Shown in pieces: positions 14,400 through 38,424 of a stretch of DNA of 64,000 bases; the first letter of the stretch is position 1, and each line of letters begins with the position of its first letter. Origin of the DNA: Prorocentrum cordatum (Eukaryota). A program made the position numbers and the translations under genes. The stretch lies in NCBI GenBank assembly GCA_963575745.1, contig CAUYUJ010000001.1:558001-622000 (forward strand), read 5' to 3'. The notes beneath the pieces are model-generated. The model saw only the letters and a program-made list of their open reading frames with translations. It had not been told where the DNA came from and searched no databases.

Positions 14400-14558
14400 A
14401 AGTAATCTCCCCAACGGGGGCGTGATCGAACACAAAAAGGGCGGGTATCGAGGGTGTGGGGAACACGTTTGGAATGACACACTGGCAGGTAAGAGCGAGC
14501 AGTCTTACATTGATTGTTGTTGGTGTTGTTGCTGTTGCTGTTGTTGTTGATGATGATG
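14400..14558 (+). mobile_element. Short SINE-like module ending in a hairpin and (TGT)n tail (family also at 14705-14801/32779-32815, 38560-38700, 43920-44290)
   Basis: Shared GGGCGGGTAYCGAGGGT...AAGAGCGARCAGTCTTA..TGATTG(TTG)n across the copies. Confidence 0.6.
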
Positions 14559-14801
14559 AACCCTCGCTACAGAAGAAGAGTTATGGTTGATCCCCGCTTT
14601 TTGGCGCACATTGTATTTTTCAATTGAAATTCCCCTCCCGGCGCTCGCACCTCTTTTTTCTGATCAGGGGAAGTCCTGGGGCTCAAAGTGTGTTGTTCCC
14701 CCGGGTTGCAACAACAACAAACAATCATGTTAAGAGTGCTCGCTCTTATCTGCTCGCGCGTCAGTCACTATGCATATCCCAAACCCTGGATACCCGCCCT
14801 C

Positions 14802-14997
14802 TGTGTATGGAACCCGTGTAATACCCTCATATATACTCCTTATCCTTACCTCTCCCGCACCTGGCCGTTTGGGCTCAGGTACTGAGTTGGAGCGATCGTA
14901 CCTTGATCGCTTGGGAGGGAAAGATATCCATCTATCCCTCCATCTCTCTACCAACGGATCAGGGGTTCTGTACTCTTGTACTTCAACCCCATACACA
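14802..14997 (+). repeat. 5' LTR of giant copia (196 bp)
   Basis: TGTGTATGG...CCATACACA forms a perfect 9-bp terminal inverted repeat; matches 32583-32778. Confidence 0.97.
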
Positions 14998-15010
14998 GGT
15001 TATCAGCCCT
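14998..15010 (+). promoter_or_regulatory. Primer-binding site of half-tRNA (anticodon-arm) type
   Basis: GGTTATCAGCCCT follows the LTR and has no TGG. It is one mismatch from GGTTATGAGCCC, the complement of the iMet anticodon stem-loop used by Ty5 and Drosophila copia. Confidence 0.75.
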
Positions 15011-15453
15011 TTAACGCTCACCTTCACCGACTCGCCCGCGGTGACCTTGCATGCGAGCCCAATGGAGCCGCTTCGGCGCATGCGCCGTAAGGGTTCCATT
15101 GGGGCTTCGCGTCCAAGCTCTCCCACGGTGCGACGGCTCGGTGACGAGTTGGAGAGCATTAGTGCGGACTGTGTTGGTGTCCCCGATACCCCCCCCCCAG
15201 CTCCCGAGGACCCGAGGCGCGTCTAGCTGCTGAACTTCGCCGCAGCGCCGCCCGCGGGGGGACAGGAGAAGGAGTAGGAACAGGAAGGAAGGAGTTTCAC
15301 ACGCCGACCTTTGATCCTCCCTCCCCTTCCCCGTCGGGAGCAATCCCAACCGCGTCAGGCGAAAGCCTTACCGGTCTCGATACTCCAGGGCGCTTCCGCG
15401 CTAACCGCCGATGGACCTCAGGTGCTGGAACCCCCAGCCCTGCGACCGTCCCT

Positions 15454-18400
15454 GTGGCGGAGCACGTAGCTACCTTCGAGGAACTCAGTAGACCAGTGTC
15501 GGCACAGCCACAGACGCGGTACCCCAAGGTATCATCGGATGAGACATCACACACACATGGTCCGAGTCGCAGCTCGTCCGCGCGCAACCGCCGTGGAGCC
15601 CCAGGCCCATGCGGCGAGCGCAGGTCGAGCCCGCGTGCTGCCTCTCAGAGGCCATGCACTCCCCGCGACAGGGGACACAGGGAAGCTGACGCTCCCCACC
15701 TCTCCATCTCAGACGACCAGCCGGCGGAGACGTCCGCCGCAGGTGACATAGCTGAGCTCAGAGACCAGGTTGAAACCTTCGTGTCCAGCCAATACTCTGG
15801 ACTACTACAGAGCGTTCAGACGAACGCCACTGATACTGCAGCCATACGTCGCGATCTTGACGGCGCCTTAGGGATCATCGATTCCAGGATCGCCGAAGAT
15901 AGACGCATCATAGGAGAACTGCAGTACCAGGTTGATCGTGAGGTGTCACACTCAGGTGAACGAACGGCGATGGTCGAGAACCTGCGCAACTCTCTCGCGC
16001 AGATGGAGCAACAACTTGTGATCGTACGCGACACAGGCATTTCTGCGGTCAGGGTTTTACACGATGAGATCCACGACCAGCTCCGTAACCGACCAACCCC
16101 AACCGAGGCCACAGACCTCGGCGACGTTCAGTCTCAGATCAATGATCTTCGATCTTACCTAGACCACACTACGGCGACGCTTCGTGCCGAAGCACACACA
16201 AACTCGTCGAACCTGATCGACATGTTGCAGCGTACTGAGAGAGTCATCACTCAAAGGCTTGATGCGACCAACGCTGTCGTGCAGCCACTCGCTAACCGGA
16301 TCTCTGACATAGAGCAGCGTTTCCCTGGTGTACAGGACGCCCTGGCAGAGTTGCGTGTCGGACGAGCCCAGACTGATCAGCTGGATTCTCCTCCCACGGT
16401 TTACGATTTCGCCCGCCTCACTGACAGGTTGCAGGAGGTTGAGAAGGCGGCGGACCACACGCAGTTAGAGCTCTCCCAGGTTATTCATGAAAGAGATACT
16501 GAGAAGGTACGTGTTGAGAGTTATCTCGCACGACTGGAAAGCGAGGTGGAGGCACAAAGCGCCCGTCTCCGAGCATGCGAGCAACGACTTGATCGGTATT
16601 CCCAACGGTCTCGGGATACTGATGAGTATACACGCCAAAAGGTGGGTCAAATACAAGAAGACATGACGAGCTGGACGAATCAGCTGATCGACCACACTAA
16701 CGACACCAACATTCACCTTCGACCTGCAGCCGACCCGCACAGGCCGACGGCAGTGTCCGCCGAAGCACCACAAGCTTCAGCAGGACAACAACGACGTACA
16801 TCTCCAGGAGCAGCCTCCGCGGCAGCTTCTGCACAGACACGCCATGTGTCTCCTGTGCGCACAGAACCAACCATCGACGGTGCACCGATACCCTCACAAC
16901 CAGTGTCTGCGGTGTCGGTACATACAACGACGCCTATCAAGGAGTCAGACACCGTTCGAGTACCTGTCTTGCCTAAGATCACGCAGCTGCTGGAGTGGCA
17001 GCAAAGAGTGCGAAAGAACTTCGGGGCCGCCTCAGGGCGACCATCCAAAGCATACGCCTTCCTATGCGTGGCAGAACAGCCCGAATGTACATTCGAGGAT
17101 TTACAAGACAGTGGAGACTTTGAGAGCATCGATTGCAAACTCGCAACCGCTCTGAGCGACATCTTATCCTCAGACTTACGCTACCAAATCAGGCTCATCG
17201 AGACCAGAGAGCACAAAGCAGGACGCATGCTCAAAGGACGCCAGATATACTGGCATATCCTACAGTCCTACAAAGTGACAGACGTCGACGACGACCTGCA
17301 CGATTTCGAGCGCCTTAAAGAACTGAGGATGAGAGACGAAGATTTGCAACGTTTCATTACCGATTGGGACGCCTTACTCTTGGAATGCCGAGAAGTACCC
17401 GATCCAAAGATATTGGAATCGCTATTCCGCACACAGATTCGTAGACATGCATGGATGAAACAAGACATGTACGAGTACCAGCGCATGAAGATGAGCGACC
17501 CGAATCGTACCTACGGTTGGCTTCGACAGCGTGTCCTGGACATACTGGAGATTAAACAATTGGAGAAGAATCAAAACAAGCTACGGTACGAACACGAGAC
17601 ACGATCTCAGGTCAACGTGTGCGTTGCATGGAAGAAAGGCAATTGTCGCAATGGTGAACGGTGCAAGGCTTTACATACATATTCCAGGGATTGGAAGAAC
17701 AACAAATCTTCCAGAACATCAACGGCTGGTGGCAACCCCCGCCGTAGTATGTCCACTCCTGCGAATCACAAGAAGCCAGCATCAAGGCCATTCTGCTTCG
17801 ATTTTGCCAAGCGCAACACATGTACCAGAGGTGATAAGTGTAACTACCCGCACGTCGCACAGTGCAAGGATTTCGCACAGAACAAGTGCACAAAAGGCGA
17901 CAAATGCAAATACGCTCATCTCGCACCTGGTGCAAAGACTCCTGAACGAAGCCCGAGTCGACCACGGACTTCCAGCCAGGACAGCCGTGGCCGATCACCA
18001 TCCCGCGGATCAGGAAGCCAACGGTCTTCACAACGCGGGGGGTTTCGCTACGCAAGCGATTCACGACAGGGACGTGACAACCGACGCCAATACGACCGAT
18101 CCCGTTCGACATCCAGGAGGTCCCAAGACTCTCGCAGCCAATCGAGAAGTCGTTACGACAGATCTTCGAGATCTACCTCCCGAGGACGAGACAATCGTGG
18201 CGGCGGACGTGGCAGTCCACGCGGCCGTGATCGATCATATGGCAGTGACAAAGGACGTGGCAAGCGGTATCCGAGCCGCGGATCGTCCCGTGGTTCACCC
18301 AACACTAGAGCACGTTCTCCTGCCAACTTTAGACATTCACGCCGTTCAGACCGCAGCTACGTCATCCGCGACAAGACCCTCATGGCCAACACCAAGGCCA

Positions 18401-21400
18401 CAACGACATCTACCAAGATACGTCGTCGGATACGCTTCGACGTACGCAACGTGGACTACTATTTCCATACCATATCTGGCAGAGCCAGACTGGACAGGTG
18501 GAAAGAGCTGCCGAATGAGGGTGACATCGTCAAAGTACCAGATCCATTACCACAAAAATGGTGGGATGATAGTGCAGAGGCCTTACGAGAATGTCAAAAA
18601 GAGGCACAACTATGGTACGACGAACTGTACGACTACCGACACAACAAAGAGTCGGTGGCCACACCAACTGCGATCCGAAAGCATGACGACACTGTCAAGC
18701 AGTCATCAAAGACTGCCCAGACGACAACAACGACAAAGCAAGTCGACACTCCACGCTCGACTGCAGCATTGACAAGGTCTTGGGTTCTTGACAGTGGTTC
18801 TGCCCATCATATTCAGGGAAAACATGAACTTACGCAGACCGAGTCGGATCGCATATCTATTCGCGAAGAGCATATTCTGGAAACTGCAAATGGTGATCGT
18901 ACCGTCAACGAGCACTACGACATACGGCTACCCGAAGTTGGACTGCATAGTTCAGCCCTTGCTTTACCAGACTGCCCATCATTACTATCAGTTGGAAAAT
19001 TGATTGAGGTTGATGGCTTTCGACAGCTTTGGGATCCTGAGCTGGGCTACATGCTTCAGGATCCGGGGGGCCAATGGTATAAGATTCCAGTCAACAATCG
19101 AGTGCCAGAGTTACGACTCGACGACTTAACACGGATACCACCGCCACGTTTATGCACTTCGTCAGCACCCCGCCGTCGTCAGCGAAAGCGTTCATCCGCC
19201 CGCTGCAACGACACTTGTTGGTGCTGCAAAACTACAGAGCAACCAACCACTGCAGACGAGCTACGACCCCACACAGGGACCTGCCCCAAGAGACCACATG
19301 TCGGAGAGGGAGGAGGAGCACGGACCATCACGGTCGAAGAACCTCCCGACACACGCACAGACGAGCCCAGCGTGGACACAACCACCGACTCGCCTACGTC
19401 TCAGACGCAGTGTTCTCCTCCACAATGCGGGGGGTTCGATATAGCTCAAGCAGACAACGACATACCGACAGAGACACCCACGCGAACGCATCCAGACAAT
19501 GATCGAGTTCTGCCCAACAGACAAAAGAAACCGATCGATCCGATGCATTACATGACTCACAGCCCAAAACATCCTGACTGTGAGATCTGTTCTCGTACGA
19601 TGGCACAGAATGCCCCGTGTAGACGACAGCGCAAACCACATCCACCGGCAGACCCCACCGAAGAGGATAACGCCTACGAAGCTTTTGTCCCGAAGGAGTT
19701 CGGTGAAGCTCTAACTGCCGACCATATCGTACTGGCCAAAGACGATGCCGCGGACAAACATGGCGACAAATATGCACTTGTTGTCCTTGACAGATATACT
19801 GGCATCTTCATGGCCTACCCAGCGCTACACAAAGACGCAGCTACTACAAAGGCATCCTTTCAACAGTTCATCGCCGCTAACGATGAAGTGAAGCATATCT
19901 ACACAGACAACTCTGGAGAGCTTCAGAAAGCTTGCCGCCAACTGGGATGGAGACACGACACGAGTACGCCACATCGTCCACAGACAGATGGACTGATTGA
20001 GCGCGTTGTCAAAATTGTCATTCTTGGTACCAGAGCTGTGTTACATATGTCTGGTCTGGGACACGAATGGTGGAAAGAGGCCATGCAAGCCTTTTGCTGT
20101 GGACACAACTTTGTGCATGCATCCACGGGCGTCGCTGCCCTCAACGAGGAGCATGCAGAAAAGACAGCTCATGAAATAAGATTTGGCGAAAGCTTTCCTG
20201 GGCACTGCATACCATTCGGTGCTCGGATATTTTGGAAATGCCTCAACCCCGAGATTAACAACGAGACTGCAAAGTTTAAAGAAAATGCTCGGGAAGGGTT
20301 ATTCATGGGATACCACTTACACTCTGGTGGACGATGGTCAGGTGACTACCTTGTTTTGGACACGGCTACATACGCCAAGAATCCTGATGGTGATCTGTGT
20401 CATGTGCACAGAGTCAAAGACATCATCATTCCTGATGGCAAGTTCACCTACCCCGTGAAAGATGGTACTCTACGACATCATAACCCTGAGGCACACGACG
20501 AGGTGAAGGCATCTACTTCTCGCCCCTTGGGTGACAAGCCAATGCCTGATCCTCCACTTTCTTACCCTAAAGAATGGGATGATCCGTCTATGATGACGAC
20601 GGAAGATAACGCTATTGATACCCAGACATCGGCTTCTGGAGTTGCTGCGCCAGCGCCGGAGCCAGACTACTGGGAACAGCGTGGATATTGCGTCATCAGA
20701 CACATTCGTACCCCAAGAAAGAAACTATTCATCCCAACGGACGACGTCATGAATATACCGGTACCTGTTGACCAACTCGACGTGACACGAGATTTCAAAA
20801 CGACTTCTACTTTCGAAGGCGAAAGTAACTTCCGAGATGTTTGGGATGGTGTTAGCGCCAACGACCACAGGGAGCTAAGCGAGCCGTGGACAGGCACGAT
20901 ACAGTTCTATGAGCTTCCAAAAATAACGCCAGACGGCAAAATGGTGGTTCGTGGACGCGAGACACGCGTGCAGAATACTACACGTCCTGATCACGTTCTT
21001 CCCGAGCATTGGAAAACACTTTCCCGTGGACAGCAAAAGAAAGAGATCGATTACGCCAACGACGTTAAACGAGCCCGTGAAATTCGTGATCGTGCTGCAT
21101 TGAGAGTGTGGACAAGACAGGATAAACAGGTCAACAATTTCCGTACTACTACATCAGGCGGACCCACATGGAATACTGTGGAACGACGGATTACATACGA
21201 CACTGACAATGGCGACGTCATCCGCGACGAGAATGTCAAAGGCGTGACAAACAAAGAAATACTGTATGCCAAATTACCTGGTGGGCCACGTGACATTACC
21301 ACGGTACTATACTACCGTCAACTACCACAACAGCACGATGGAGAAGAACGTGCTTTGGTATTTGTGGATAATGAGGGAACCGACTTTGGGACTTTGAACC

Positions 21401-21555
21401 CGCTCATACGCAAGTTCACCCAGTCGGTAGCAATACCAACCATGCCACGTGAGACCAACTACATGCCGGCACACAGAGATAAAATACCAGATTCGACATG
21501 GTCACGCCCAGCATTAGTTACCAGAAACCTGAGTAAGAAAGAAGTTGCCGCATAA
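15454..21555 (+). CDS. Gag-PR-integrase portion of the giant copia polyprotein (2033 aa open frame; start uncertain)
   Basis: Long coiled coil; three CCCH fingers; RS/RG-rich tract; WVLDSGS protease; HYMTH..CEIC plus TADH/TDNSGE/DGLIER integrase; LFMGY motif. Confidence 0.92.
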   Translation: MAEHVATFEELSRPVSAQPQTRYPKVSSDETSHTHGPSRSSSARNRRGAPGPCGERRSSPRAASQRPCTPRDRGHREADAPHLSISDDQPAETSAAGDIAELRDQVETFVSSQYSGLLQSVQTNATDTAAIRRDLDGALGIIDSRIAEDRRIIGELQYQVDREVSHSGERTAMVENLRNSLAQMEQQLVIVRDTGISAVRVLHDEIHDQLRNRPTPTEATDLGDVQSQINDLRSYLDHTTATLRAEAHTNSSNLIDMLQRTERVITQRLDATNAVVQPLANRISDIEQRFPGVQDALAELRVGRAQTDQLDSPPTVYDFARLTDRLQEVEKAADHTQLELSQVIHERDTEKVRVESYLARLESEVEAQSARLRACEQRLDRYSQRSRDTDEYTRQKVGQIQEDMTSWTNQLIDHTNDTNIHLRPAADPHRPTAVSAEAPQASAGQQRRTSPGAASAAASAQTRHVSPVRTEPTIDGAPIPSQPVSAVSVHTTTPIKESDTVRVPVLPKITQLLEWQQRVRKNFGAASGRPSKAYAFLCVAEQPECTFEDLQDSGDFESIDCKLATALSDILSSDLRYQIRLIETREHKAGRMLKGRQIYWHILQSYKVTDVDDDLHDFERLKELRMRDEDLQRFITDWDALLLECREVPDPKILESLFRTQIRRHAWMKQDMYEYQRMKMSDPNRTYGWLRQRVLDILEIKQLEKNQNKLRYEHETRSQVNVCVAWKKGNCRNGERCKALHTYSRDWKNNKSSRTSTAGGNPRRSMSTPANHKKPASRPFCFDFAKRNTCTRGDKCNYPHVAQCKDFAQNKCTKGDKCKYAHLAPGAKTPERSPSRPRTSSQDSRGRSPSRGSGSQRSSQRGGFRYASDSRQGRDNRRQYDRSRSTSRRSQDSRSQSRSRYDRSSRSTSRGRDNRGGGRGSPRGRDRSYGSDKGRGKRYPSRGSSRGSPNTRARSPANFRHSRRSDRSYVIRDKTLMANTKATTTSTKIRRRIRFDVRNVDYYFHTISGRARLDRWKELPNEGDIVKVPDPLPQKWWDDSAEALRECQKEAQLWYDELYDYRHNKESVATPTAIRKHDDTVKQSSKTAQTTTTTKQVDTPRSTAALTRSWVLDSGSAHHIQGKHELTQTESDRISIREEHILETANGDRTVNEHYDIRLPEVGLHSSALALPDCPSLLSVGKLIEVDGFRQLWDPELGYMLQDPGGQWYKIPVNNRVPELRLDDLTRIPPPRLCTSSAPRRRQRKRSSARCNDTCWCCKTTEQPTTADELRPHTGTCPKRPHVGEGGGARTITVEEPPDTRTDEPSVDTTTDSPTSQTQCSPPQCGGFDIAQADNDIPTETPTRTHPDNDRVLPNRQKKPIDPMHYMTHSPKHPDCEICSRTMAQNAPCRRQRKPHPPADPTEEDNAYEAFVPKEFGEALTADHIVLAKDDAADKHGDKYALVVLDRYTGIFMAYPALHKDAATTKASFQQFIAANDEVKHIYTDNSGELQKACRQLGWRHDTSTPHRPQTDGLIERVVKIVILGTRAVLHMSGLGHEWWKEAMQAFCCGHNFVHASTGVAALNEEHAEKTAHEIRFGESFPGHCIPFGARIFWKCLNPEINNETAKFKENAREGLFMGYHLHSGGRWSGDYLVLDTATYAKNPDGDLCHVHRVKDIIIPDGKFTYPVKDGTLRHHNPEAHDEVKASTSRPLGDKPMPDPPLSYPKEWDDPSMMTTEDNAIDTQTSASGVAAPAPEPDYWEQRGYCVIRHIRTPRKKLFIPTDDVMNIPVPVDQLDVTRDFKTTSTFEGESNFRDVWDGVSANDHRELSEPWTGTIQFYELPKITPDGKMVVRGRETRVQNTTRPDHVLPEHWKTLSRGQQKKEIDYANDVKRAREIRDRAALRVWTRQDKQVNNFRTTTSGGPTWNTVERRITYDTDNGDVIRDENVKGVTNKEILYAKLPGGPRDITTVLYYRQLPQQHDGEERALVFVDNEGTDFGTLNPLIRKFTQSVAIPTMPRETNYMPAHRDKIPDSTWSRPALVTRNLSKKEVAA

Positions 21556-24351
21556 CCACGTGCACAAGAAGCCCTACGAAAAGAATACGAGAGATTGGAA
21601 AAGAAACAAACATGGATGTTGGAGACTGTTGCAGAAAAAGCTGATATTGAGTCACAAGCTATTCGCAATGGAACAAAGGTGCATTTCTTCAATTTCTTGG
21701 CGTTATCTTCAGTCAAACACGAAGAACTTCCTCCTGATCTACGTAAATTCAAAGGCAGAGTTGTGGTTCAGGGCAATACAGGAAAAGATGAAACTGGTTT
21801 GGCCGCCATATTCGCCGACGCCGCTTCCAGTGCTTCGCATATAGAGGCTTCCAAACTTTGCGATGCTACTGCGTTATTACCGCAATATGCGGGAGAGCAA
21901 AGTGACGCACCTGGAGCTTACACGCAGGCACTATTATACGGCGACGGACGAATTGATCCAGTTGATACTTGGATTACTATACCTAAATGGCGACAACCGA
22001 CATCATGGTCAAAATGCAATAACCCAGTGTGCCGATTGCGATTGGCACTATACGGACACCCTCTTGCAGGTGTCTTTTGGGAACGAAAATGCCGTACATG
22101 CTTGGAAAGCGTCGGTTTCGAGCCTATTTCAGGATGGGAATGTGTATGGAGACACAACAAACTGGGACTGATACTTTCAGTATATGTGGACGATTTCAAA
22201 TTGGCCGGCCCAGCTCATAATCTACAGACTGGCTGGGATTATATTCGTAAAAGCGGTATCGATTTGGATCCACCTACTCCATACTCACAATATTTGGGTT
22301 GTGGACAACAAGCATATGACGTACCGCAGAGCATCTTCGACAAAAGAATGTCCACAATACGCCCTATGCTACCTGCACACAACGAGAAATAATACAATAC
22401 GGCAAAACACGTTCGTGGTATTCGACATGACATGCTTGGTTTTACAGATCAGTGCATTGAGCGGTACCTGGAATGCGCCTCCAAGCGCGCCCAGGGAACA
22501 GGGTCACGTCGGAAACGATCCGACTCGCCGAGGGCTTCGCGATCCAAATCGCCATCCTCCTCCGGGTCGGTCGCCAGACCTACTAGTGTGCTCAACGCAC
22601 GGACAAGATCATCCAGCCCAGCAAAACCGGTCGACACAACTTCTACCAATACCATACCCGCCACATACCATGATCTACCCGACGCAGAGACCCCTGGCAT
22701 CGAGGACACCTCCTTCACTGAGTCCGACTATTTAGACGAGGGCGTTCTCGGCCAGGACGCGGCAAGTGCACTAATGAAGATCCTGTACTTGGCACGTTGC
22801 TGTCGTTTCGATCTTCTACATCCGGTATGTATGTTGGCCAGAGAAATTTCCAAATGGAATACTACATGTGACAAACGTCTACATCGGTTGATATGCTGCA
22901 TCAAAACGACGCGCACACATTGCTTACACGGATGGATCGGCGATTCATCAGACAAGTTATCCATCATGCTCTTCACTGACGCCTCGTTCGCTGATTGCAT
23001 TACATCATCTAAATCCACTACCGGTGTTTTTGCTGCGCTTGTTGGACCCAATACGTTCTTTCCAGTCAACGCTGTATGTAAGAAACAAACGGTTGTTTCA
23101 CATTCATCTACTGAATCGGAGATCGTTGCTCTCGATTCCGCACTACGACTGGAAGGGTTACCACTACTATCATTCTGGGAAGCCGTGGTGGGAGTTGCCA
23201 AAACATGCAAAGAGAAGAATACATGCCTGAGTTGCCATCGACACGTTGACCCGGCGATGTGTCCTACATTGGCAGCCAAAAAGAAGCGTAAACCATCGCC
23301 TCGCAAGGCACCCCCTACTCGGGGATCTTCTCCTAGCCGTAGGCAACTACCGCTAAATACGGATTTACCTACGACTCCAAAGAGACGTACAATATCCCAT
23401 GAAGGTACCGTACTACACGTGGATCCAGAGCCAGCTCCAGAGATCAGTGCACCGAAAGTACGACTCATCGTCCTGGAGGATAACCAGGCCGTTATCAAAA
23501 TTGTCCAAAAGGGACGTACACCAGCACTTCGTCATCTTCATCGTACTCATCGTATCAATCTGGATTGGATATGCGAAACATGTCAAATTGAACATATCGA
23601 GCTTAAATATGTAGGAACAAAAGAGCAGATCGCAGATATGATGACCAAACATTTCGAGACCAAGAAAGCAGACCTTTGGAAGGACCTCTTGGAACACTCG
23701 CTTATTTTTCCTGTTACTCCGATACAATGTCCGCCGATACGAGGGCCTCGGAGGCCCGACGGTTTACCTCATGAAGCGGAACCTCCTAAATTGAATGGAT
23801 GCCCAGAAATATGCAAGATATTGCTGACGGAAAAAGAAAGATGGGGCGAGGTAGGATCAGAATGCGGATTTCAGTGTGTTGGACAAGCTAACCATGAGGG
23901 GCTATGTGCATGCATGTACCACTATGGCGTACCAGCCGCAGATACTGCGTCGCGCACACCTCGTTCACGCGCACGTTCACCGCACGGTAGACATCCTCGC
24001 CATCCTCCCTCACCTCAACGAGATGCAGAGAGAGTTAGGACATTGATTATTCGTTCACACCGCAGCAATTTTACGACTCGAGCTACAAAGCTTACAAGCA
24101 TCCTGTTTGCTGCTTGCGAGGCGAACATAAGTGAGATCGGTTCTAATCCCGACCCCTCCATCCACGAGATGGATCAGGCACAGCCGCTCAACCTCGTCGG
24201 CTGGCCCATCGGCTACGACAAGGAGTGCGACCCGAACGCCAGGGGCGATGACCGCGTGGGCTTTGCGTACCACGCTCAAACTGGTCGTCCTCGTGATCCC
24301 GAAGATGGTTACATATACATACATCAACGGCGTGCCGATCGGAGCGGATAA
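21556..24351 (+). pseudogene. RT and RNase H of giant copia, same frame as upstream ORF, broken by in-frame TAA codons (21553, 22390)
   Basis: KFKGRVVVQGN, SDAPGAYTQ, LALYGHP, YVDDF (22183), YLGC; RNase H TDASFA, SSTESEI, EDNQAVI, QIADMMTK. Confidence 0.92.
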
Positions 24352-27300
24352 TTTGATCTTCGCGTACCCGACGAGTCTTCTATCCGTGAACTTGCCCGCT
24401 TCGCGTCCGTCGAGGCTAAGGAATGGGCCAGCGCTGAGAGTGGATCCGTCGGCGGCAACGCCAACTACGAGTACAACACGTTCACAGCTACGCCGTGGCT
24501 ATCTTTCATGCGTGCTATGTGTATGATTTCCAGCCTTTTCAATCGTAATCCTTCAGTACAAGATAGTGTTCGTGGACTACATGATCACTTGAATGCGACG
24601 ATCCCAGGATCAGACCGCAAATGTCCACCATCAAACTTTACTACAATGATACTGAAGACGGAGTGGATGATGATTCACAACGATTGGTCCAAAATTGGCA
24701 GTGCAGTTCTGGGGCAATACACCGAGGACAGCGTTACGGATACGCAAAACTATTACAACAATGGTCTGAGTGTACCATCCGATGTATGCCAGAATGGATT
24801 GGTAACGCCATGCTATGCTCCTAAAATTGATCGTGCAATGGCCAAGCTACCTACTCGTCCACCTGGCATCGCCAGGACATCGGATACATCTGGGCACATC
24901 GGTCATATCGTCGAGGATAACTTGGTCACCAACACGAGAGCCTTTTCCGACCTTACCCAAACAAAGAAGTTCCGCCGCAAGCTTACTACATGGTTGACTA
25001 CGCGCGGAGGCTTTGGAAGTATCGGATCAAACTCCAAGACGGTGGCAACACCATCCGACCATCCGAATGGTTGGGTGGCGATATTGGATGATCCACAAGA
25101 GACAGAGCGTACCTATCGTTGGACACCATACAACGAGGGCAACGACTTCTTCGGCGACGCTGCTGACCACATGGGTTCGAATGATCCTGGCATGACTCCT
25201 GACAATGATGTGGACCCATTCGAGCTGGACCACGCAAAATACAGTGCTTTCTGCGGTGGTCGCTTGGTTTCTACCCTATTGTCAGACAATGGGTGGCACT
25301 CCCTCGTACAAGAGGACGTGGGACTATTACATCATGCATTTGGGCCATCGGGTCATGCGTACAAATGGACCAACTTATGCACGGACTCAACATGGATCAT
25401 GCATCCGAAGAAAGGGGCTAAGGGTGCAAACCACAAGAAGTACCCCACTTTCGGCATCGACGAGCTCAACGCTGCCCAGAAGAGAATCGACCTTGCCAAA
25501 GCATCAAATACTGCTCTTGTTCCGCTATTCATGCCGTGCCTTAACCGCGCGGAATACATGGGTGGCGCTACTCTTGAGCACCTGTCGACCATGATCCGCG
25601 ACGACATCATGATGTGGGCATTCTCTTTTGGCAATTACAGGGAATGGTTCAGACAGAATGACACGCCGATCGGTCAAGATTGCGTTCTCTTGCCTGAAGC
25701 TGGTTATGAGGGCGTACGATACGGAATGGAGGAACTACGCAAGCACCGTTTCGAGAAAGAGGAAAGCCATATCAACGCTCTTCTCAACAATCAGTTTGAG
25801 AACACTCTCGAGCAGCGCAATATGATCAGGAAGATCCGCGAAGCCAGAGGCCTCATGTTTCAAAGCGACAACGCTTCCATCAAGAAGTGGCGTGAGCTGA
25901 ACGAGACCATCTGGGAATACTGGGCCAATGATTTCCCATCATCCATAAAACAAAGACACTATCACAGGGGACTCAATGCCATGGTAGTATGGAGTGCGAA
26001 CGACATCGCATGTGCTAATCCTGGACAGAACACCATCGACATGCGCCGACATCACAGTCGTGCTCCTACCAACGTACACGAGCTCCAAAAGATGGAATGT
26101 GAGGGCGGCGTCCCGACGCTCATGCCCGTGCACGTGCTCGTGGACGTATCACGTTTTGTCGATGTGATGCAGTATTTCCGCTGCCCCACGGTCATGGGAC
26201 CTGGAAAAGCAGCGCAATGGGGCGTACACCCGAACTTTGATCACCACACGAGCGACTTGATCACTATCATGCAGAACCGTGGTATCACTGTTCTTCCATC
26301 CGACCATTGGGTGGATACGTACGACAGGGTTACCCCGCAGGCTTGGCACGCCAAACAGAATAACCACAACATGGCAATGTTTACAACGCAATTCTGCGAC
26401 GCAGTATGCTATCGCAATTTTTGCGCATTGATACAGTCTCTTCCTTCTCAGCCATATCCATTCAGGCCGCCATTGCTGACTTCTGTCACGGACAACCAGG
26501 CCTACACTCGGGCCAAGGAAATCATGGCAGCCCTCGACTTCAGAGAAAAGTTGACAAGCGAATGGAAAAGAGACCTCAGCCTCACAACATTGATGACACA
26601 GACGGCAAACGAGATGGCTCATTGTGCGTGGATGGCGTCATGTGCCGAGGGCACATTGCCGGCATCACTGCCTGCCGAGACGGGCGACACGACTGAGCCG
26701 ACTCCTGGAAGGTCTACACGTACGCCAGCAACGGACCCTAGCGATCCTGACCAAACCCTTCCTGATAATGATCCATGGGTTATGGCATACAACGACTTAT
26801 TCCAGTACCTTATGTTGTTGATCAAAGAATACCCTGGGGCTTGGGCATCTTGGCATTCTCTTGAGAAAGATGAACTTCTAGAACCCAAGATCGTCAAAAC
26901 TGTTGAAGATGCACATGCAGTTACTTGGGTTGTATTCGAGCAATTCTTACGTCAGATCAAAGAGTTGGATGGAGACGATAATGCGACCAAATCAAGACTC
27001 ATTGCAGAAGAAAACAGATTGTCTTCTCACCGCATCGGCCCAGCTGCCGAGAACGAGAAGAACATCGAGGCATGCAAAACATTCTTCAAACAGAATGCAC
27101 TGGATCGAGTTGCTTTGGGTCATGACCCTAATGTCCCTACAGCCGTATGGAGGGCAGCTGATGACACCGCACAGCCAGCCCCACCAGGCCCATTGCCCGA
27201 TCCACTGCAACCTGGACCGCAATCGATCAAAGCGTCGCAACCATCGACTCCAGAGCCTAAAGCAGAACAACAACCAGCAGATCAGCTCCCAAAAGCTGAG

Positions 27301-27891
27301 GCGGTACCGATCCCTGATGACGGCACCGACCTTGAGGCAATGGAGCTGGAGGCAACTCCTGCTGAGGAGGAGCCTTCTCCACATGAGATGAATATATTGT
27401 CATGGCAGGACAGTTGTGAGCGTTCCATGCACGAGGATACCAGCAAGCTCGGGATCTTCGACAACCCATGCACTATTCGCGAATGGAAGTTACAGTATGG
27501 CGTCAAATATGAACATCCATACATGTGCCCCATGTTGCGGGGCACGACAGCGACCAATGGATTTGCCTGCGTCGAAGACCAAGAGTGGTACGAGCAGCTA
27601 CTGCATGATGGTAGTGTAATTGCTCATGCGCCTGACATTGCACAATCTGGTTGTTTCCCAGAATGGAAATGGATACCATTACCACATTACGACGATGTAC
27701 GTTATGGTCCTGAGCTAATTGATGAAGAATGGCTGGGAACAAACAAATACATGAGCAAAGACATCACGACTATGTTACGCCATGAGATTCACTACAAAAA
27801 GTTTTGGACCAACCAATTTCATGACAGACGTATTAATATCTGGGACAAAACAACAAAGAATGATTGGAAGATTCCAAGCAATTGGAAATGA
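24352..27891 (+). CDS. Cargo region 1, in frame with pol after TAA 24349: unknown domain, probable SGNH-fold domain, and N-terminus of the Tpt1-like domain
   Basis: About 1180 open codons of high-complexity sequence; CTDSTW, GGATL, VVWSANDI and AWHA occur in SGNH block order; MSKDITTMLRHE lies near the end. Confidence 0.7.
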   Translation, partial: FDLRVPDESSIRELARFASVEAKEWASAESGSVGGNANYEYNTFTATPWLSFMRAMCMISSLFNRNPSVQDSVRGLHDHLNATIPGSDRKCPPSNFTTMILKTEWMMIHNDWSKIGSAVLGQYTEDSVTDTQNYYNNGLSVPSDVCQNGLVTPCYAPKIDRAMAKLPTRPPGIARTSDTSGHIGHIVEDNLVTNTRAFSDLTQTKKFRRKLTTWLTTRGGFGSIGSNSKTVATPSDHPNGWVAILDDPQETERTYRWTPYNEGNDFFGDAADHMGSNDPGMTPDNDVDPFELDHAKYSAFCGGRLVSTLLSDNGWHSLVQEDVGLLHHAFGPSGHAYKWTNLCTDSTWIMHPKKGAKGANHKKYPTFGIDELNAAQKRIDLAKASNTALVPLFMPCLNRAEYMGGATLEHLSTMIRDDIMMWAFSFGNYREWFRQNDTPIGQDCVLLPEAGYEGVRYGMEELRKHRFEKEESHINALLNNQFENTLEQRNMIRKIREARGLMFQSDNASIKKWRELNETIWEYWANDFPSSIKQRHYHRGLNAMVVWSANDIACANPGQNTIDMRRHHSRAPTNVHELQKMECEGGVPTLMPVHVLVDVSRFVDVMQYFRCPTVMGPGKAAQWGVHPNFDHHTSDLITIMQNRGITVLPSDHWVDTYDRVTPQAWHAKQNNHNMAMFTTQFCDAVCYRNFCALIQSLPSQPYPFRPPLLTSVTDNQAYTRAKEIMAALDFREKLTSEWKRDLSLTTLMTQTANEMAHCAWMASCAEGTLPASLPAETGDTTEPTPGRSTRTPATDPSDPDQTLPDNDPWVMAYNDLFQYLMLLIKEYPGAWASWHSLEKDELLEPKIVKTVEDAHAVTWVVFEQFLRQIKELDGDDNATKSRLIAEENRLSSHRIGPAAENEKNIEACKTFFKQNALDRVALGHDPNVPTAVWRAADDTAQPAPPGPLPDPLQPGPQSIKASQPSTPEPKAEQQPADQLPKAEAVPIPDDGTDLEAMELEATPAEEEPSPHEMNILSWQDSCERSMHEDTSKLGIFDNPCTIREWKLQYGVKYEHPYMCPMLRGTTATNGFACVEDQEWYEQLLHDGSVIAHAPDIAQSGCFPEWKWIPLPHYDDVRYGPELIDEEWLGTNKYMSKDITTMLRHEIHYKKFWTNQFHDRRINIWDKTTKNDWKIPSNWK

Positions 27892-28570
27892 TTTAAAGAA
27901 ATGGTTCAATGGAAATTCCGAGATCGCAAAGAAAGACACAATGGACCATCCATGGAAGCGGGAGTGGCACATTTCAAGAAAGACGGTGAAAATGATGGAT
28001 ACACCGATTGGAACGACTACTATCCGATATTCATTATTCGTGCGTTCCAGAAGCATATTGACCCGCAGAAAAAACATAATCGAGATATACGCCAAGCCGA
28101 TTCCTGACGGAGGTGACCCCAGCACTTTTGACTGGAACAGCGTTATTGCTATTCGGTGCGTCGGTGGTCACAGTTGTGTCAACTCATCTTCAAAGCCATG
28201 GAACATGGGATGGGAGAGCTTACAGTGGGCAGATATCAAATATCTCCATCATGGAGCAGCATCCCGCGCCTGGAAGAACATACTGAAGACAGGGATCATT
28301 CCTGGATATGTTGAACCACATTCTCAGAGAGACAGAACTTATAAACCATCGCAGCGATCTGAGGCATTCTTCAGTTCTAGCACATATTTGAACAATGTTC
28401 AACAGAACCCACATACTTCAGTGGAATCGTACAAGTTCAACAGCTACAAGAACGAAGTCGAGCTGGTGATCAACATGGAGATCGCCACAAAAGCAGGTTG
28501 CAGATTTTGGTTGGGGGCTCAGGGCGCTATCATGACTGAGAACGTGGTACCCGCTGCGGCAATTATTGCA
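27751..28570 (+). pseudogene. Tpt1/KptA-like RNA 2'-phosphotransferase (ART-fold) domain, with TGA at 27889 and a frameshift near 28075
   Basis: Ordered motifs SK.ITTMLRH, AIRCVGGHS, YLHHGA....W..IL..GI.P, RSEAFFS and I.M..A...G.RF....GAIMT..VP parallel the Tpt1 motifs LRH, IRAxQGHS, YHGT, RxHVH and GxxF..VxL. Confidence 0.78.
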
Positions 28571-31500
28571 ATTCGCCGCCTCAAACCACACCACATGCAT
28601 GGCCAGCAGCTGTGGCCAGACGGCGGCCCATGGGACTACCCGCCATTGGCAGCCAGAGAGCCATTGAGCAAGTACGAGATTTGCGCCTGCCTTCCTGGGG
28701 AACTTATTGACGACCCACCTGGATTGGCACCTATCGGCCCCGACCAAGACATGGAGCCTCCAAGGATGACGCCAGCATCAGCACCCTCGGCCAGGCTGGG
28801 GGAAACCCCTGCTGGCCGTACATCCGCAGAGGACGCCTTGGACGAGCAAATAGTACGTGCTATGATCCAGGAGACCAATCACAAAGCAGATGATAAAGAA
28901 TGGTTGATTGCATTATCACATTGTCGTGAAGCTCTTCGACCAATCACAGCAAAGATCATGCAAAAAGATTGGGATCGTCGTCCTGCATTTAACGATGTTC
29001 GAATGGGCGACTTCATTGTCATTAAGAATTGGGGCTCTACCAAATGCTTCCACTACGACAACCATTGGCCCAAAGGCAATCACAATACCAAGATTGCCTT
29101 GTCCAAGGGACACATATATGGTCCAATCATCCATTTCGGCATCTTCGACAAGTTCTTTGCGGTACAAGTACCTATTCTCAACTACGGTTTACGATGGGTA
29201 AATATCTGGTATAATGACAAAAGCATGCCCCTCAAGGGCGTTGTATTTGCATTGCCGATTCGTATCGAAGAACACGCCATCGATCCAACATGGATGGAGA
29301 CTGCCCTGAAAGGCCCGACATCTTGCAGCGAGGAGATACTGCAGCACAAGGTTAGCGGCAGCTTACCATACCTTGGAATGCCTAGCATCCATAGACCACG
29401 TATTCCGCGTACACCACCAAGAAGGCCCGCTCCACGGACACCTGATCCAGACGAGCTGGTGGCCACACCTGCCGAGGACAACGCTCAGACGGGCGACATT
29501 CCTCGACAGGGTACAGCATCATCGCATGATCCACTGATCACCGTAATCGTGGACATATCAAATATCGTTCTTACTGCAGATGAGAAAGCTGCGAACGACA
29601 ACATGAGGGCAGACCTCTCGGCAGACATCCAAGCAGAAGAGCAGATCGAGGCAAGCATCCTCGATAACATCATTGATCCGCCATCGAATTTCCTTGATCA
29701 TCCAGACTACGACCCCGACGAGGATTCAAGATGTATTAGACAGTCTGATGATTGCCGCGTGTATTGTTGGACATCGGCGCTATTGGTGGATTCGCCTATG
29801 ATCTAGATGAGGCAGATCATTGAGATACACAGTGGCGCAGACAGAATCGTAATGGACAAAATTCAGTCACATTTACAATTTGAAATTCGATTTGGATCGA
29901 AAGCATGGAACGCGGAGTCATATCATTTGAACTACAATCATACCCACAAGTGGGCACATGACTTACCCAATTGTGGTGCAGATCACTTCATCAAAAAGTT
30001 GGTACACTACCTCGACCCAGAGACTATCGAGGAGTCGACCACTGGCATCTTTCAATGGATTTCCAAAGTATACCAGAACATCTTGAAAGATAGTATTGTG
30101 GAGCTACCAGATTTCGCCAAGGAAGTCATCCATGACAACCATCCTGCACTTCAGGCATTGCGTGACCTATACAAAAATTGTACTGCGACATACGGTGATC
30201 CAGAGTTTCCTGCGTGGGAAGAGCTGGTGGAAACACCTGCTGCGCCTCGAGAGGAGGGCGCTGAGCAGGATATTCCCCAGGACCCAGGCAGTGTTGCGTC
30301 TGCAGCTCCCGATCAGGAGACTATGGTACGCATCATAGCTGAACAGACGGGACTCAAGCGCGAGGAGGGCGACAACGAGGCTACCTTGCAGAAGCAGGCT
30401 CGCCGTCTTCGTGAGGAGAACGTATGCCATGGCGGTACTGAGGATACCGACAACGTCAAGATAGAGTACAAAGGACTGCCAGGGGAAAGGTTGTCTCGGA
30501 TCGAGATCGAGGGTTTAAGCAGATCGATCGCTTCCAGGCCAAACACCGAGATCAATCGTGAGGCGATCAATCAGATCGGTCAGAGCCTCGCTCGCGGTCA
30601 GGACACCCGCTGGGGATCCCGCGATCACCTGACTTCGGCAGGGCCCCCCGAGACGATCTTGCATCCCATACCGCTCTGTAACAACTGCGGTCGAGATCTG
30701 TCCCTCGGTATCGTCACAGGTGACGGCACACTATGTGATATATGTTGGCAATACACTGTGGCCGTAGGCGCCACAGGTAAGAGCACCGCCACACAGAGTG
30801 ACCTCGCGTACCTCCAGAAGTTGACGAACTGGATCAAGACGACGTTGTCCGAGGACCAGGTCGCGAGATACATGAAGGATGGCGCACATGTCATTATGAC
30901 GGGTGCGCGATCCCCCATAGGCACAGAGAAAGATCAGTTGCGGAGATTGGCCAATACGTCCAAGAAGAGGTATCAGAAGTGGGTCGAAGCCGGTAGCCCG
31001 CCTGCACACGAATGCAGATTAATGGGCGAATCCGAGGACGACCGACCTCTGTACTACCCATACGCCAATCTCATTCAACGCTTTCTCAACGACCTCAGAT
31101 TCCATCATCAGATGACAGGAGCCCGCGTGAATGTCGGCAAGAAGCCCTGGAGAGTCGAGGACATGCGCGACGCGTGGGACATCCTTGACGTCAGTATTAG
31201 GACAGGACAGGCTGGTCGGAGAAAGTGGTGGCTGAACGAGGGACGCATTGACAGGCAGACGCGGCAGGCGCGCGGACTGATTACGGTTTCTCTCCCTCGA
31301 GGGGACGGAACCCGTGAACAGTTCACCCAGCGCAAGCTTGCCGCGATTGCCAACGAGCTGATAGGCTCCCTCGATCCGTCACACACTGACCAGAGGGGGG
31401 GTAGTACAGGGATGAGAACCGATCCAGATACACACTCCCAACAGTCCGATGACGCCATGGAGCCGCGGCCGCCGCCGCGGCCGCCGCCGCGCCCTGCTCC

Positions 31501-31837
31501 TGGCGACGCCGCTGCATCCAGCGCCTCAGGCGCGGAGGACTACATGCCCGCGATGCCGCGCGCCAAGAGAGCACGTACATATGATTACGCTGCTTACTGG
31601 CGCCACAATCTCGAGGACAGCGATTGGGGTCTTCGATGCTGGAGTTATTGCATCAAATGTTGGATCTACATTGCGATCAACAACGACGAGTATGTGTACA
31701 TCCAGGATATCACGTACAACGATTGGTTCCGCAACTGGATCCCGAGGACCACTTGGGAAACGTTTACGACAAGCTATGTGACGTACAACGGCCAGAGGGC
31801 GTGGGACCGCAGGTTCTACAAGGACGGCGACGCGTAG
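28571..31837 (+). CDS. Cargo region 2: unknown protein, same frame across TAG 29804, with a CxxC..CxxC ribbon and a Trp/Tyr-rich C-terminus
   Basis: ORFs 27782-29806 and 29807-31837 are contiguous in one frame; CNNC..CDIC lies near 30677-30745. Confidence 0.65.
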
Positions 31838-32571
31838 TGAGTCGGCCGCAAGGCCCGCTGCTCAAGAGCAGAACTTCCGTTCATCAAAGTTCGCCTTGAG
31901 CGGTGGCTAATGCATTCTTTTAGGCCACTTCAACCTTTCACACAAGTGGCCATGCGCACATATAGATATCTTTTGCGATCACCGAGGCAGCCTCCTAAGG
32001 AGCAACGCCAACGGGAGTCGCCAAACAGATTTTATACATCATTTTCGTGTTCATCAACACGACATTTTCTCCTGGCCAGGTACTTGCTTTAACGCAGATT
32101 TGCATTTCTTTCAGGATCGTGTTCGTCAACACGATCTGGGCATACATTTGCTTTTAGGCAGACTTGTGTTTGATTTCAAGATTGTGTTCATCAACGCGAT
32201 CTTAGCATGCATATTTTAACAATTTAACAATATTGTGTCGAGAATAATCTGATGCTGGTGGCAACACCTGCCTCGCAAATCTTGCGAGGCGGTTCGCGTT
32301 GCCTTGGTGCTCAGATCTTCTTTCTCCGCCTACCTTTGTCTCATTCTTCTCCTCCCTCGAGCGCCGAAGCGCTTTGGGGGGGCGCGCCGAGGGGGCGGCA
32401 AAGTCCGCCTGGAGAAGAAAATGAGACCCAAGGTATCTCTTCTTACCTCAGTTTGCAGCTGTGGCTTCGCTGACTTTTAGCCCAGCTGCCTTTCTGATTT
32501 AAGGTAAAGGAGTTCTGAGGTTACGGATTCCATCTCCCTGATCCCGAGTCCTGCCTTCACGGGCGGGATTC

Positions 32572-32582
32572 GGGACGGGGGG
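32572..32582 (+). promoter_or_regulatory. Polypurine tract of giant copia
   Basis: GGGACGGGGGG abuts the 3' LTR. Confidence 0.8.
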
Positions 32583-32778
32583 TGTGTATGGAACCCGTGT
32601 AATACCCTCATATATACTCCTTATCCTTACCTCTCCCGCACCTGGCCGTTTGGGCTCAGGTACTGAGTTGGAGCGATCGTACCTTGATCGCTTGGGAGGG
32701 AAAGATATCCATCTATCCCTCCATCTCTCTACCAACGGATCAGGGGTTCTGTACTCTTGTACTTCAACCCCATGCACA
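32583..32778 (+). repeat. 3' LTR of giant copia (196 bp)
   Basis: Identical to the 5' LTR except A14993 versus G32774. Confidence 0.97.
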
Positions 32779-33574
32779 CCCTCTTCGTCTTCGATCGTAC
32801 CCCCTGTTGGGGGGGATATTCATTCCCTGCCACGTGTGGTTGGGGAAGCCCTTGACAACGAACGGTGACAAATAACGGGGGAGAATGATGGCGAAGGGAT
32901 CGGAGGAAGGGAGGGGAGGGGCAAGAAGGAGGGAGGACGGTGATTTGCGTTGTGAGTGGCGATTCAGCTTGCGCCATGGCTTGCGCCAGCCACTCCAACA
33001 CAGGTTAACGATAAGTTTCGCCATGGCTCGCGCCATAAACAGCGCCACGTACCACCCCCTTGAAATAATATATCGTGGATACCCCCACGGGGGGACGTAC
33101 AGCTGCGAACTGGTGTCAGAAACAAATTCTGTGGAACCGTGAAAAGAAGCGGGATGTTGGGGTAGTGGGGCAGAAGGATAGTGAGAACTGCAACCGTGTC
33201 GAAAGGAGCGCGGAAGCTCGAAGTGAGAGCGCGATTCTTCAATACATTGTGAAGAAGTATCAAACGGGAGCCGCGATCCGGTGGTCAATTGCAAGGAAGT
33301 CCCAAGCGAGAGCGCGATTCTTCAATAACTTGTGAGGAAGTATCAGGCGGGAGCCTTTGTTGAACCTTAATTACTAAACAATTATTATTGTTGGACCCCC
33401 TATATTCGCCCTGGCGCTCTCGCCGAGGCGCCGGCCGCATTTCCTCTGAAATTGAGGCTCGCGCTCAGGCGTTTTGGGGTTCCGCCATAACCGGCCCCCC
33501 AACAACAACAACTCTCCGGCTCGAGACTTCCTCTTTTTTTACTCGGGCTCGGTGCTCTTGCTCGCCGCCGAGAG

Positions 33575-34695
33575 CGGCTCCCGGGCCGGACACCCGGGTC
33601 GGCGCCCGAGCCGGCGCCCGGGCGCCGGAAAATCGAGTTCCGAGGCGGCGCCGAAAAAAGGCCATTCCAATACACATTTTTCTTTCGAACATGCTGAATT
33701 TCTGCTTCCGGCGCCCGGGAGGGAGGCCGTCCGGGCCGATTCCGGAGCTCGGGCCGGCACCCGGCCCGGCTCCCGGGCCGGACGCCCGGGTCGGCGCCCG
33801 AGCCGGCGCCCGGGCGCCAGAAAATCGAGTTTCGAGGCGGCGCCGAAAAAAGGCATTTCAATACACATTTTTCTTTCGAAAATGCTGAATTTCTGCTTCC
33901 GGCGCCCGGGAGGCCGTCCGGGCCGATTCCGGAGCCTGGGCCGGCACCCGGCCGGCTCCCGGGCCGGACGCCCGGGTCGGCGCCCGAGCCGGCGCCCGGG
34001 CGCCGGAAAATCGAGTTCCGAGGCGGCGCCGAAAAAAGGCCATTCCAATACACATTTTTCTTTCGAAAATGCTGAATTTCTGCTTCCGGCGCCCGGGAGG
34101 CCGTCCGGGCCGATTCCGGAGCTCGGGCCGGCACCCGGCCCGGCTCCCGGGCCGGACGCCCGGGTCGGCGCCCGAGCCGGCGCCCGGGCGCCGGAAAATC
34201 GAGTTCCGAGGCGGCGCCGAAAAAAGGCCATTCCAATACACATTTTTCTTTCGAAAATGCTGAATTTCTGCTTCCGGCGCCCGGGAGGCCGTCCGGGCCG
34301 ATTCCGGAGCTCGGGCCGGCACCCGGCCCGGCTCCCGGGCCGGACGCCCGGGTCGGCGCCCGAGCCGGCGCCCGGGCGCCGGAAAATCGAGTTCCGAGGC
34401 GGCGCCGAAAAAAGGCCATTCCAATACACATTTTTCTTTCGAAAATGCTGAATTTCTGCTTCCGGCGCCCGGGAGGCCGTCCGGGCCGATTCCGGAGCTC
34501 GGGCCGGCACCCGGCCCGGCCGGCACCCGGCCCGGCTCCCGGGCCGGACGCCCGGGCAGTTCCGATCGCGCCGAAAAGAGGCCATTCCAATACACATTTT
34601 TCTTTCGAAAATGCTGAATTTCTGCTTGCGGCGCCCGGGAAGCCGTCCTGGGCCGATTCTGGAGCGGCTTTGGGCCGGACGCCCGAGCCGGCGCC
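33575..34695. repeat. GC-rich tandem satellite, about 188-bp unit, about 6 copies
   Basis: CCATTCCAATACACATTTTTCTTTCGAAAATGCTGAATTTC recurs with period about 188 (e.g. 34069, 34257, 34445). Confidence 0.95.

Positions 34696-38357: not shown

Positions 38358-38424
<67 letters not shown>

Follow-up and report, generated by a model that had tools for sequence, protein, structure and literature searches.

Results

Borders and insertion of the element

The DNA analysed here, which we call the window, is a stretch of 64 kb from the Prorocentrum cordatum assembly GCA_963575745.1 (contig CAUYUJ010000001.1, positions 558,001 to 622,000), and its main subject is a 17,977-bp long terminal repeat (LTR) retrotransposon at window positions 14802–32778. 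Behind its gag and pol regions, 3′ of RNase H and in frame with pol, this element carries a further coding region of ∼2,550 codons (24169–31837, ∼8 kb), which we refer to as the cargo. All features of the element lie on the + strand.

A direct-repeat search placed the 5′ LTR at 14802–14997 and the 3′ LTR at 32583–32778. These 196-nt direct repeats are of the TG..CA type, each starting with TGTG and ending with CACA, and they are identical at 195 of 196 positions, the sole difference lying at 14993. A target-site duplication, the pentamer CCCTC, stands immediately outside them on the left (14797–14801) and on the right (32779–32783). A 12-mer resembling a primer-binding site (PBS), GGTTATCAGCCC (14998–15009), follows immediately 3′ of the 5′ LTR, and a polypurine tract, GGGACGGGGGG (32572–32582), adjoins the 3′ LTR on its 5′ side. 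Contigs that run from flank to flank in two public sequencing runs, X3 and X8, omit 17,982 nt, the length of the element plus one 5-nt duplication (17,977 + 5). An empty version of the site therefore exists elsewhere. The extent of 17,977 bp that an earlier note on this DNA had assigned from the LTRs, duplication, PBS and polypurine tract is thus confirmed by the repeats, the pentamer and the empty-site contigs. We conclude that this copy is a recent insertion, now defective.

A long reading frame with six interruptions

One reading frame can be followed from 15163 to 31837, over 4,302 + 1,256 = 5,558 codon positions; five stops and a single additional A interrupt it. Four stop-to-stop frames, 15163–21555, 21556–22392, 22393–24351 and 24352–27891, share a common frame, which runs on past the TGA at 27889 up to a run of A residues at 28069–28074; the coding sequence continues in the next frame, stop to stop at 27755–29806 and then 29807–31837, and the whole is terminated by TAG at 31835. 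In-frame stops number 3, 1 and 2 in the three stretches of the coding frame, as compared with 29–144 in the other + strand frames, a scarcity far beyond chance. The earlier note had described open reading frames (ORFs) in one frame split by single stops and, after a frameshift near 28075, a second frame reaching 31837 across one more stop. This description stands, with the A-run as the site of the frameshift and TAG 29804 as the additional stop; the ORF starts that it gave (15454, 21595 and so on) do not stand, being GTG or TTG starts. No in-frame ATG occurs before 15970, although the 269 codons upstream of it (15163–15969) belong to the open frame. For this upstream open stretch of gag, either translation starts at a non-ATG codon, or an ATG has been lost in this copy, or a 5′ part is spliced on.

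The in-frame stops are a TAA between integrase and reverse transcriptase (21553–21555), a TAA between reverse transcriptase and RNase H (22390–22392), and, within the cargo, a TAA (24349–24351), a TGA (27889–27891) and a TAG (29804–29806). The +1 frame change falls within a run of one G and six A residues (G-A6; the six A at 28069–28074, within 28066–28075), which we take to resemble viral polymerase-slippage sites. With five stops and one frameshift precluding the making of its products, this copy is dead. A reassigned stop codon was ruled out as the cause of the interruptions, because all three stop codons interrupt the frame and one interruption is found in this copy alone.

gag and pol

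The gag region (15163–18780) consists of a coiled N-part, three CCCH zinc fingers (17620–17919) and an Arg/Ser-rich tail. The fingers, of the C-x8-C-x5-C-x3-H type and followed by a long Arg/Ser-rich tract, match the Pfam family zf_CCCH_4 in three stretches (E 2.3e-10, 40.6 bits against a cut-off of 29); gag usually carries a CCHC knuckle. An aspartic protease (PR) motif, VLDSGSAHH (18784–18810), was read from the translation and has no Pfam match. The integrase (IN; 19546–19980) comprises an H..H..C..C finger (19546–19590) and the rve core (19753–19980), the core matching PF00665 at E 1e-6 with 29 bits, under the cut-off of 32.6; retroviral integrase chains were matched at E 0.0046. The reverse transcriptase (RT; 21745–22302) is of the copia type, RVT_2, with YVDDF at 22183–22197. 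It scored 31.4 bits against PF07727 (E 1.8e-7; cut-off 31.6), or 26.7 bits within the long read-through, and no RT family other than RVT_2 scored when Pfam was run on this region. The RNase H (RH) region, which contains a basic insert (22969–23655), runs from LFTDASFADC to ADMMTKHF (23632–23655), again as read from the translation and again with no Pfam match. We take the protease, integrase finger, YVDDF and RNase H motifs to be the usual copia motifs. The domain order is gag-PR-IN-RT-RH, and the position of rve upstream of RVT_2 is the copia order.

Some 500 codons between the integrase core and RT (19980–21550) have no family match, which is far beyond the usual integrase tail. Indeed gag, the integrase tail and the spacer between IN and RT are all enlarged, and pol alone occupies ∼8.5 kb. 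A second copia-like ORF is present in the window, at 6084–11063 (1,659 codons; RVT_2, E 1.5e-11) in a stretch of 62–66% GC; no similarity between it and the element studied here was detected. This lack of similarity, together with pol scores that lie below the family cut-offs, indicates a very divergent lineage. We conclude that the element is a deep copia-order lineage, whose LTRs, duplication and gene order fit Ty1/copia and whose RVT_2 score is just under the cut-off.

The cargo in public sequencing runs

RNase H is joined to the cargo by an open, low-complexity linker of 170 codons (23656–24168), identified from the frame and its translation, that contains no stop. The N-part of the cargo (24169–27336) begins with Met 24169 and contains a conserved region of ∼820 residues, a helical stretch and a Pro-rich linker. 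A Tpt1/KptA-like domain (27754–28540), described below, is followed by the C-part (28541–31837), which is made up of several blocks with Pro/Ser-rich linkers, a CxxC...CxxC motif (30677–30754) and a Trp-rich end before the terminal TAG. Altogether, Pro/Ser-rich linkers divide the cargo into at least five blocks, and no internal repeats were found in the proteins of the element.

Contigs of four public runs were aligned to 14500–33100 in 30 bins. Each of the four runs covered all 30 bins, with 19,878 contigs aligned in X1 and 8,270 in X3, and some contigs of the cargo were identical to the window, at a depth of 338–463. Cargo sequence was present in 20 runs that belong to 14 studies. Most are metagenomes of marine, estuarine or fresh water, and no RNA run is listed among those that contain it. 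These data show that the cargo belongs to a repeated element. As it is covered throughout in all four runs, it is not unique to this copy; a cargo both unique to this copy and evolving neutrally is what the earlier note had named as speaking against its reading.

Other copies were also sought as DNA. The metagenome contigs yielded no relative among 121 pattern stretches found with an alignment query and 7 found with a single-protein query; the viral contigs yielded none by protein and none by an exact pattern of 26 nt; and in the genome contigs there were 22 pattern stretches, none of them a relative, and no occurrence of the exact pattern.

Joining of two unrelated repeats between LTR-like repeats, that is, an assembly chimera, might be suspected where a region is as rich in repeats as this one. 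The duplication of 5 bp is exact, however, the LTRs match, and the joints of the empty site have the length of the element plus the duplication; moreover, one frame spans every junction and the contigs of four independent runs leave no bin uncovered. We therefore regard a chimera as extremely improbable.

Conservation of the cargo as protein

A HMMER search with the translation of 24352–27888 returned 128 representatives, of which 85 reach E ≤ 1e-10 and 21 reach E ≤ 1e-30; all are fragments of 59–749 residues with 33–99% identity. A short-protein word search with 28070–31834 added 15 further relatives of 53–90% identity, all labelled Pyramimonas sp. by their source, while a length-matched protein search with 28070–29803 and 29807–31834 found no relative. 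These labels are the one hint at a host, which is probably a Pyramimonas-like planktonic green alga. By tblastn, all 143 relatives map to 24187–31798 and none onto gag-pol. The longest, P0002, spans 24187–26361 and has 749 codons open at 40% identity, a length that neutral sequence could not, in our judgement, have kept open at such a distance.

Where relatives cover the breaks in the cargo, they read through them. TAA 24349 is replaced by Glu in both covering relatives, TGA 27889 by Ser, Pro or Tyr in all six, and TAG 29804 by Arg in the only one; across the A-run at 28069–28074, both covering relatives have one continuous frame. The relatives concerned are 33–63% identical to the cargo. Since sense codons stand in relatives at every break, the cargo forms a single contiguous stretch of conserved coding sequence. 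Judged from these comparisons, which show it open in relatives down to 33–40% identity, it is, or at one time was, selected as a single coding region. The ∼8 kb of cargo after RNase H that the earlier note had proposed is thus borne out as in frame with pol, multi-copy and conserved as protein.

Sharing of a frame with pol could nevertheless be incidental if the cargo were a separate gene, comparable to env or to the additional ORFs of certain plant elements, and expressed from its own Met on a spliced or subgenomic RNA. Two distant relatives, P0002 and P0123, extend to the N-end of the cargo; both begin with a Met that lies within ∼35 residues ahead of the homology, and Met 24169 of the window stands at the matching place. 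Such starts may, however, be the choices of gene callers on database fragments. No stop splits RNase H from the cargo, because the frame is open at 22393–24349 and the stop at 24349 is private; in addition, we estimate the chance of a stop-free linker of 170 codons, at this base composition, as well under 1%. We consider a separate gene a real possibility, albeit a doubtful one.

Interruptions in close copies

The public-run contigs vary at 1,472 places, and what follows refers to the 40 best supported of these. At 24349 every other contig in all four public runs has G, encoding Glu, and the TAA is therefore private to this copy; of the five stops, this is the only one among the 40. Three of the 40 places lie outside the coding region, and the 37 coding variants (16 synonymous and 21 nonsynonymous) are a mix as expected under post-insertion decay of this copy. 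From the one LTR difference in 196, ∼45 private changes are estimated in 18 kb. The 40 listed variants are then perhaps most of the private changes, which hints that the remaining stops are common to many copies.

The A-run behaves differently from the private stop. The form with five A accounts for 83 of 595 in contig depth in X1, 400 of 1,593 in X3 and 0 of 34 in X8, and it occurs in a single contig of X9. It follows that an uninterrupted consensus of the young subfamily, which the earlier note had expected of a single-ORF ancestor, is not obtained, the extra A being present in most close copies; the part of that expectation that concerns the cargo is supported by read-through in relatives.

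This majority of the six-A form among close copies, and the position of 24349 as the sole stop among the 40 places, would be in keeping with some of the interruptions being sites of recoding, at which slippage at G-A6 or stop read-through sets the ratio of short to long product as for gag and gag-pol. Against this, relatives at 33–63% identity read through in one frame, the shift that would be needed is +1 and lies inside the Tpt1-like domain, and all three stop codons serve as interruptions. Furthermore, with the best 40 of 1,472 places considered, the absence of the other stops from the list proves little. Recoding is in our view unlikely.

A Tpt1/KptA-like region in the cargo

The domain at 27754–28540 contains SKDITTMLRH, IAIRCVGGHS, LHHGAAS, QRSEAFFSS and GCRFWLGAQGAIMT, and is interrupted by TGA 27889 and by the extra A. 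PF01885 matched the raw frame at E 7e-4. On a read-through in which X replaced the stop and the extra A was passed by a single four-letter step, the match improved to E 3e-5, with 24.6 bits against a cut-off of 26, and covered model positions 73–176 of 177. An independent model from PHROGs, phrog_5470 ‘RNA 2′-phosphotransferase’, matched at the same place with E 1.4e-3. In alignment with Escherichia coli KptA, IAIRCVGGHS of the cargo falls on CIRAVQGHS, LHHGAASRAWKNILKTGIIPG on the second KptA block and GCRFWLGAQGAIMT on GLPFWQAENGVWLT, the matching blocks being IRxxGHS, HGxAS and G..FW...G..T. The N-terminal signature SKxxxxxLRH is kept in the covering relatives.

Papers given here by PMC number are cited from excerpts of their text. 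Tpt1 has an essential catalytic tetrad, Arg-His-Arg-Arg (PMC6333775). The Arg-His pair of this tetrad (LRH) and its next Arg (IRC.GGHS) are present in the cargo and are kept in relatives. On these likenesses, the middle of the cargo is probably a Tpt1/KptA-type, two-lobed NAD-dependent enzyme acting on phosphate groups of RNA or DNA. It is the sole recognisable family signal in the cargo, of which it makes up ∼10% as protein.

Remaining blocks of the cargo

The conserved block of ∼820 residues in the N-part is marked by the motifs GHIGHIVED and KQRHY.RGL. The N-part alignment was built from 32 sequences chosen by greedy testing, the remaining 96 of the 128 being left out; in broader alignments MAFFT misplaced many short fragments. 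The model of the N-part has a mean pLDDT of 51, and residues ∼400–660 alone are confident. With this model, Foldseek found nothing in the PDB at E ≤ 0.001, and a wide VIA-align comparison gave matches to long helices only, with Z ≤ 5.6.

Searches by sequence gave a similar result. Pfam found no credible match on 38 cargo relatives, PDB sequence and profile searches with the cargo gave no meaningful match, and the Tpt1 match was the sole cargo match in NCBIfam, PADLOC and PHROGs. In the searches of Pfam, the PDB, NCBIfam, PHROGs and PADLOC, ∼85% of the cargo is thus left with no family assignment. Nowhere in the frames of the element is there a 19-residue stretch with a mean Kyte–Doolittle hydropathy above 1.5. 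As it has no hydrophobic segments, the cargo is not an envelope protein, and the virus-like character suggested in the earlier note, if taken in the sense of Env, is not upheld.

So large a fraction with no family assignment is what might be seen if the cargo were of no use to the element, being host sequence captured passively or foreign DNA nested within it, and the amplified subfamily does have a broken cargo. Yet the cargo lies on the strand and in the frame of pol, it contains no internal LTRs or repeats, its frames are open in relatives down to 33–40% identity (including 749 stop-free codons), and its full length is covered in all four runs. Passive capture therefore seems very unlikely.

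Setting of the element in the window

No similarity was found between the element and the remainder of the 64-kb window, and Rfam and tRNA scans of the window revealed no RNA gene and no tRNA gene. The right flank (32779–33100) is repeated in the public runs, where it occurs in many contigs, with loose ends at 32813–32818 and empty-site joints. As this flank is itself repeated, the element landed within another repeat.

Elsewhere in the window, LINE-like ORFs lie on the + strand at 45114–54240, with matches to endonuclease/exonuclease/phosphatase (E 5e-4), RNase H (E 5.5e-4) and RVT_1 (E 6e-8). Satellite-like arrays are found at the start of the window (1–4022; three copies of a tandem unit of 1.6–1.75 kb) and close downstream of the element (33569–34520; five copies of a repeat of 188–191 bp). 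A third such array consists of two related blocks of 9–21-bp microrepeats, at 37300–38700 and 42560–44340, which are ∼5.3 kb apart.

Discussion

We believe it probable that the element at 14802–32778 is a recent, defective copy of a high-copy, deep Ty1/copia-order element, in which gag, PR, IN, RT, RH, a linker and a cargo of ∼2,550 residues are encoded in one frame. Several observations weigh against this view. With regard to the lineage, all the pol matches are just under the curated cut-offs of Pfam. The distant relatives of the cargo may lie outside copia elements, and two of them begin with Met. Contig depth, when summed, is about twice as high over gag-pol as over the cargo, a figure that reflects contig depth and not copy number. 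Many copies may share the stops at 21553 and 22390.

The state of the cargo in young copies raises a further difficulty. The six-A frameshift is common to ∼75–86% of contig depth in X1 and X3, and most of the copies amplified recently therefore carry a broken cargo. This argues against a need for the C-half in cis, and suggests that this half is supplied in trans or was dispensable for the latest burst.

The assignment of the cargo also has its weak points. The score for PF01885 is 1.4 bits under the Pfam cut-off; the fourth Arg of the tetrad (QRSEAFF) was placed by eye in a stretch rich in inserts; no PDB chain matches the Tpt1-like region by sequence or profile; and hhalign against the single E. 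coli KptA sequence gave a probability of 1.5%. The AlphaFold2 model of 28070–29803 has a mean pLDDT of 37 and is unusable. The break in this copy lies inside the domain and precludes a model of the whole. The N-region of ∼820 residues, confidently modelled at 400–660 alone, matches no known fold.

If the element is nevertheless organized as we propose, its genomic RNA would be translated as one polyprotein, from which the protease of the element would free the cargo tail; alternatively, translation of the cargo may begin at its own Met at 24169. Host small RNAs need a 5′-phosphate for Argonaute loading. The cargo enzyme might remove a 2′-phosphate, or might cap 5′-phosphate ends with ADP-ribose, and its targets could be the ends of the element's own RNA or cDNA, or host small RNAs, in either case aiding replication or blunting silencing. 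We propose an end-modifying role because of the known chemistry of the family: Tpt1 uses NAD+ to remove an internal 2′-phosphate from RNA, and some members ADP-ribosylate 5′-phosphate ends (PMC6333775, PMC12678800, PMC6582358). Beyond tRNA splicing, the biological roles of Tpt1 chemistry have yet to be settled (PMC6333775). An active Tpt1-like domain would link retrotransposition to NAD-dependent modification of RNA or DNA ends.

More speculatively, the element may represent an undescribed giant copia-like lineage of marine and freshwater green flagellates, with a polyprotein of ∼5,500 residues and an accessory machine of 2,550 residues, of unknown fold, built around a Tpt1-type enzyme that would ADP-ribosylate or dephosphorylate nucleic-acid ends. 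Were this tentative picture true, it would be the first retrotransposon-borne modifier of nucleic-acid ends and a counter-silencing device of a novel type.

Copia-type elements are generally seen as compact and structurally uniform; the present one, with 18 kb and a frame of ∼5,500 codons, shows that large, selected accessory proteins are possible among them. Large accessory proteins are carried by Penelope-related Terminons, and, as in some gypsy elements and retroviruses, they are now seen in copia too. A cargo family of ∼2,550 residues in which one enzyme-like domain is recognisable offers a pool of unexplored folds, and elements of this sort account for long ‘orphan’ ORFs in algal genomes rich in repeats. 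Among the matches listed, open-access text reported no retrotransposon fused to Tpt1, KptA or an ADP-ribosyltransferase, and neither large cargo-bearing copia elements nor such retrotransposons from Pyramimonas. In a related prasinophyte genome, ∼68% is interspersed repeats and 15% LTR elements, and no such element is described in the excerpt (PMC10675990).

Comparison with known systems

The element resembles Ty1/copia (Pseudoviridae, including the green-algal Osser) in its TG..CA LTRs, 5-bp duplication, PBS adjoining the LTR, gag-PR-IN-RT-RH order, RVT_2-type RT with YVDD and single long frame. It is unlike these elements in being about twice the usual length, in the CCCH fingers of its gag and in the 2,550 codons that follow RNase H, a load far greater than such elements are known to bear. 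A survey of plant LTR elements describes copia elements as uniform in structure, with PBS type and additional ORFs, or eORFs, as the exceptions (PMC6317226).

Like Sirevirus/SIRE, the element has additional coding sequence 3′ of pol, ahead of the 3′ LTR. The env-like ORF of SIRE is separate, far shorter than the present cargo and predicted to be membrane-associated. In contrast, the cargo here is in frame with pol, is at least five times longer, lacks hydrophobic segments and has an enzyme-like domain.

The giant Ty3/gypsy elements Ogre and Retand are likewise unusually long because of the region that separates pol from the 3′ LTR. That long region is largely non-coding in them, or holds a short extra ORF, whereas here a conserved coding frame follows pol, in an element of copia order. 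Giant LTR elements have been described as having ‘a long way from pol to 3′LTR’ (PMC11963269).

Accessory enzymes have been found in several retrotransposons: a DNA methyltransferase (DNMT) fused in polyproteins of dinoflagellate and charophyte elements (PMC5890265), an AlkB-type m6A demethylase in Ty3/gypsy elements of orchids (PMC9289625) and a viral SF1 helicase in insect retrotransposons (PMC6338049). Tpt1/KptA is unreported in the excerpts of these three papers. As in those elements, so far as the excerpts describe them, an accessory enzyme that modifies nucleic acids, and is thought to act on silencing or on element RNA, is here encoded in the element's own frame; theirs are single recognisable domains, whereas the enzyme-like domain here is ∼10% of a larger protein.

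The Tpt1-like domain itself shares with Tpt1, KptA and TRPT1 the sequence blocks of both lobes, SK....LRH, IR..GHS, HG.AS and G..FW...G..T. Enzymes of this family pair a winged-helix lobe for RNA with an ADP-ribosyltransferase-like lobe for NAD. Cellular Tpt1/KptA proteins are free-standing, with ∼180–230 residues (184 in E. coli KptA), whereas the domain described here is embedded in a polyprotein; its LRH and GHS blocks are ∼120 residues apart, as compared with ∼60 in the cellular enzymes, and it has an insert before the last Arg.

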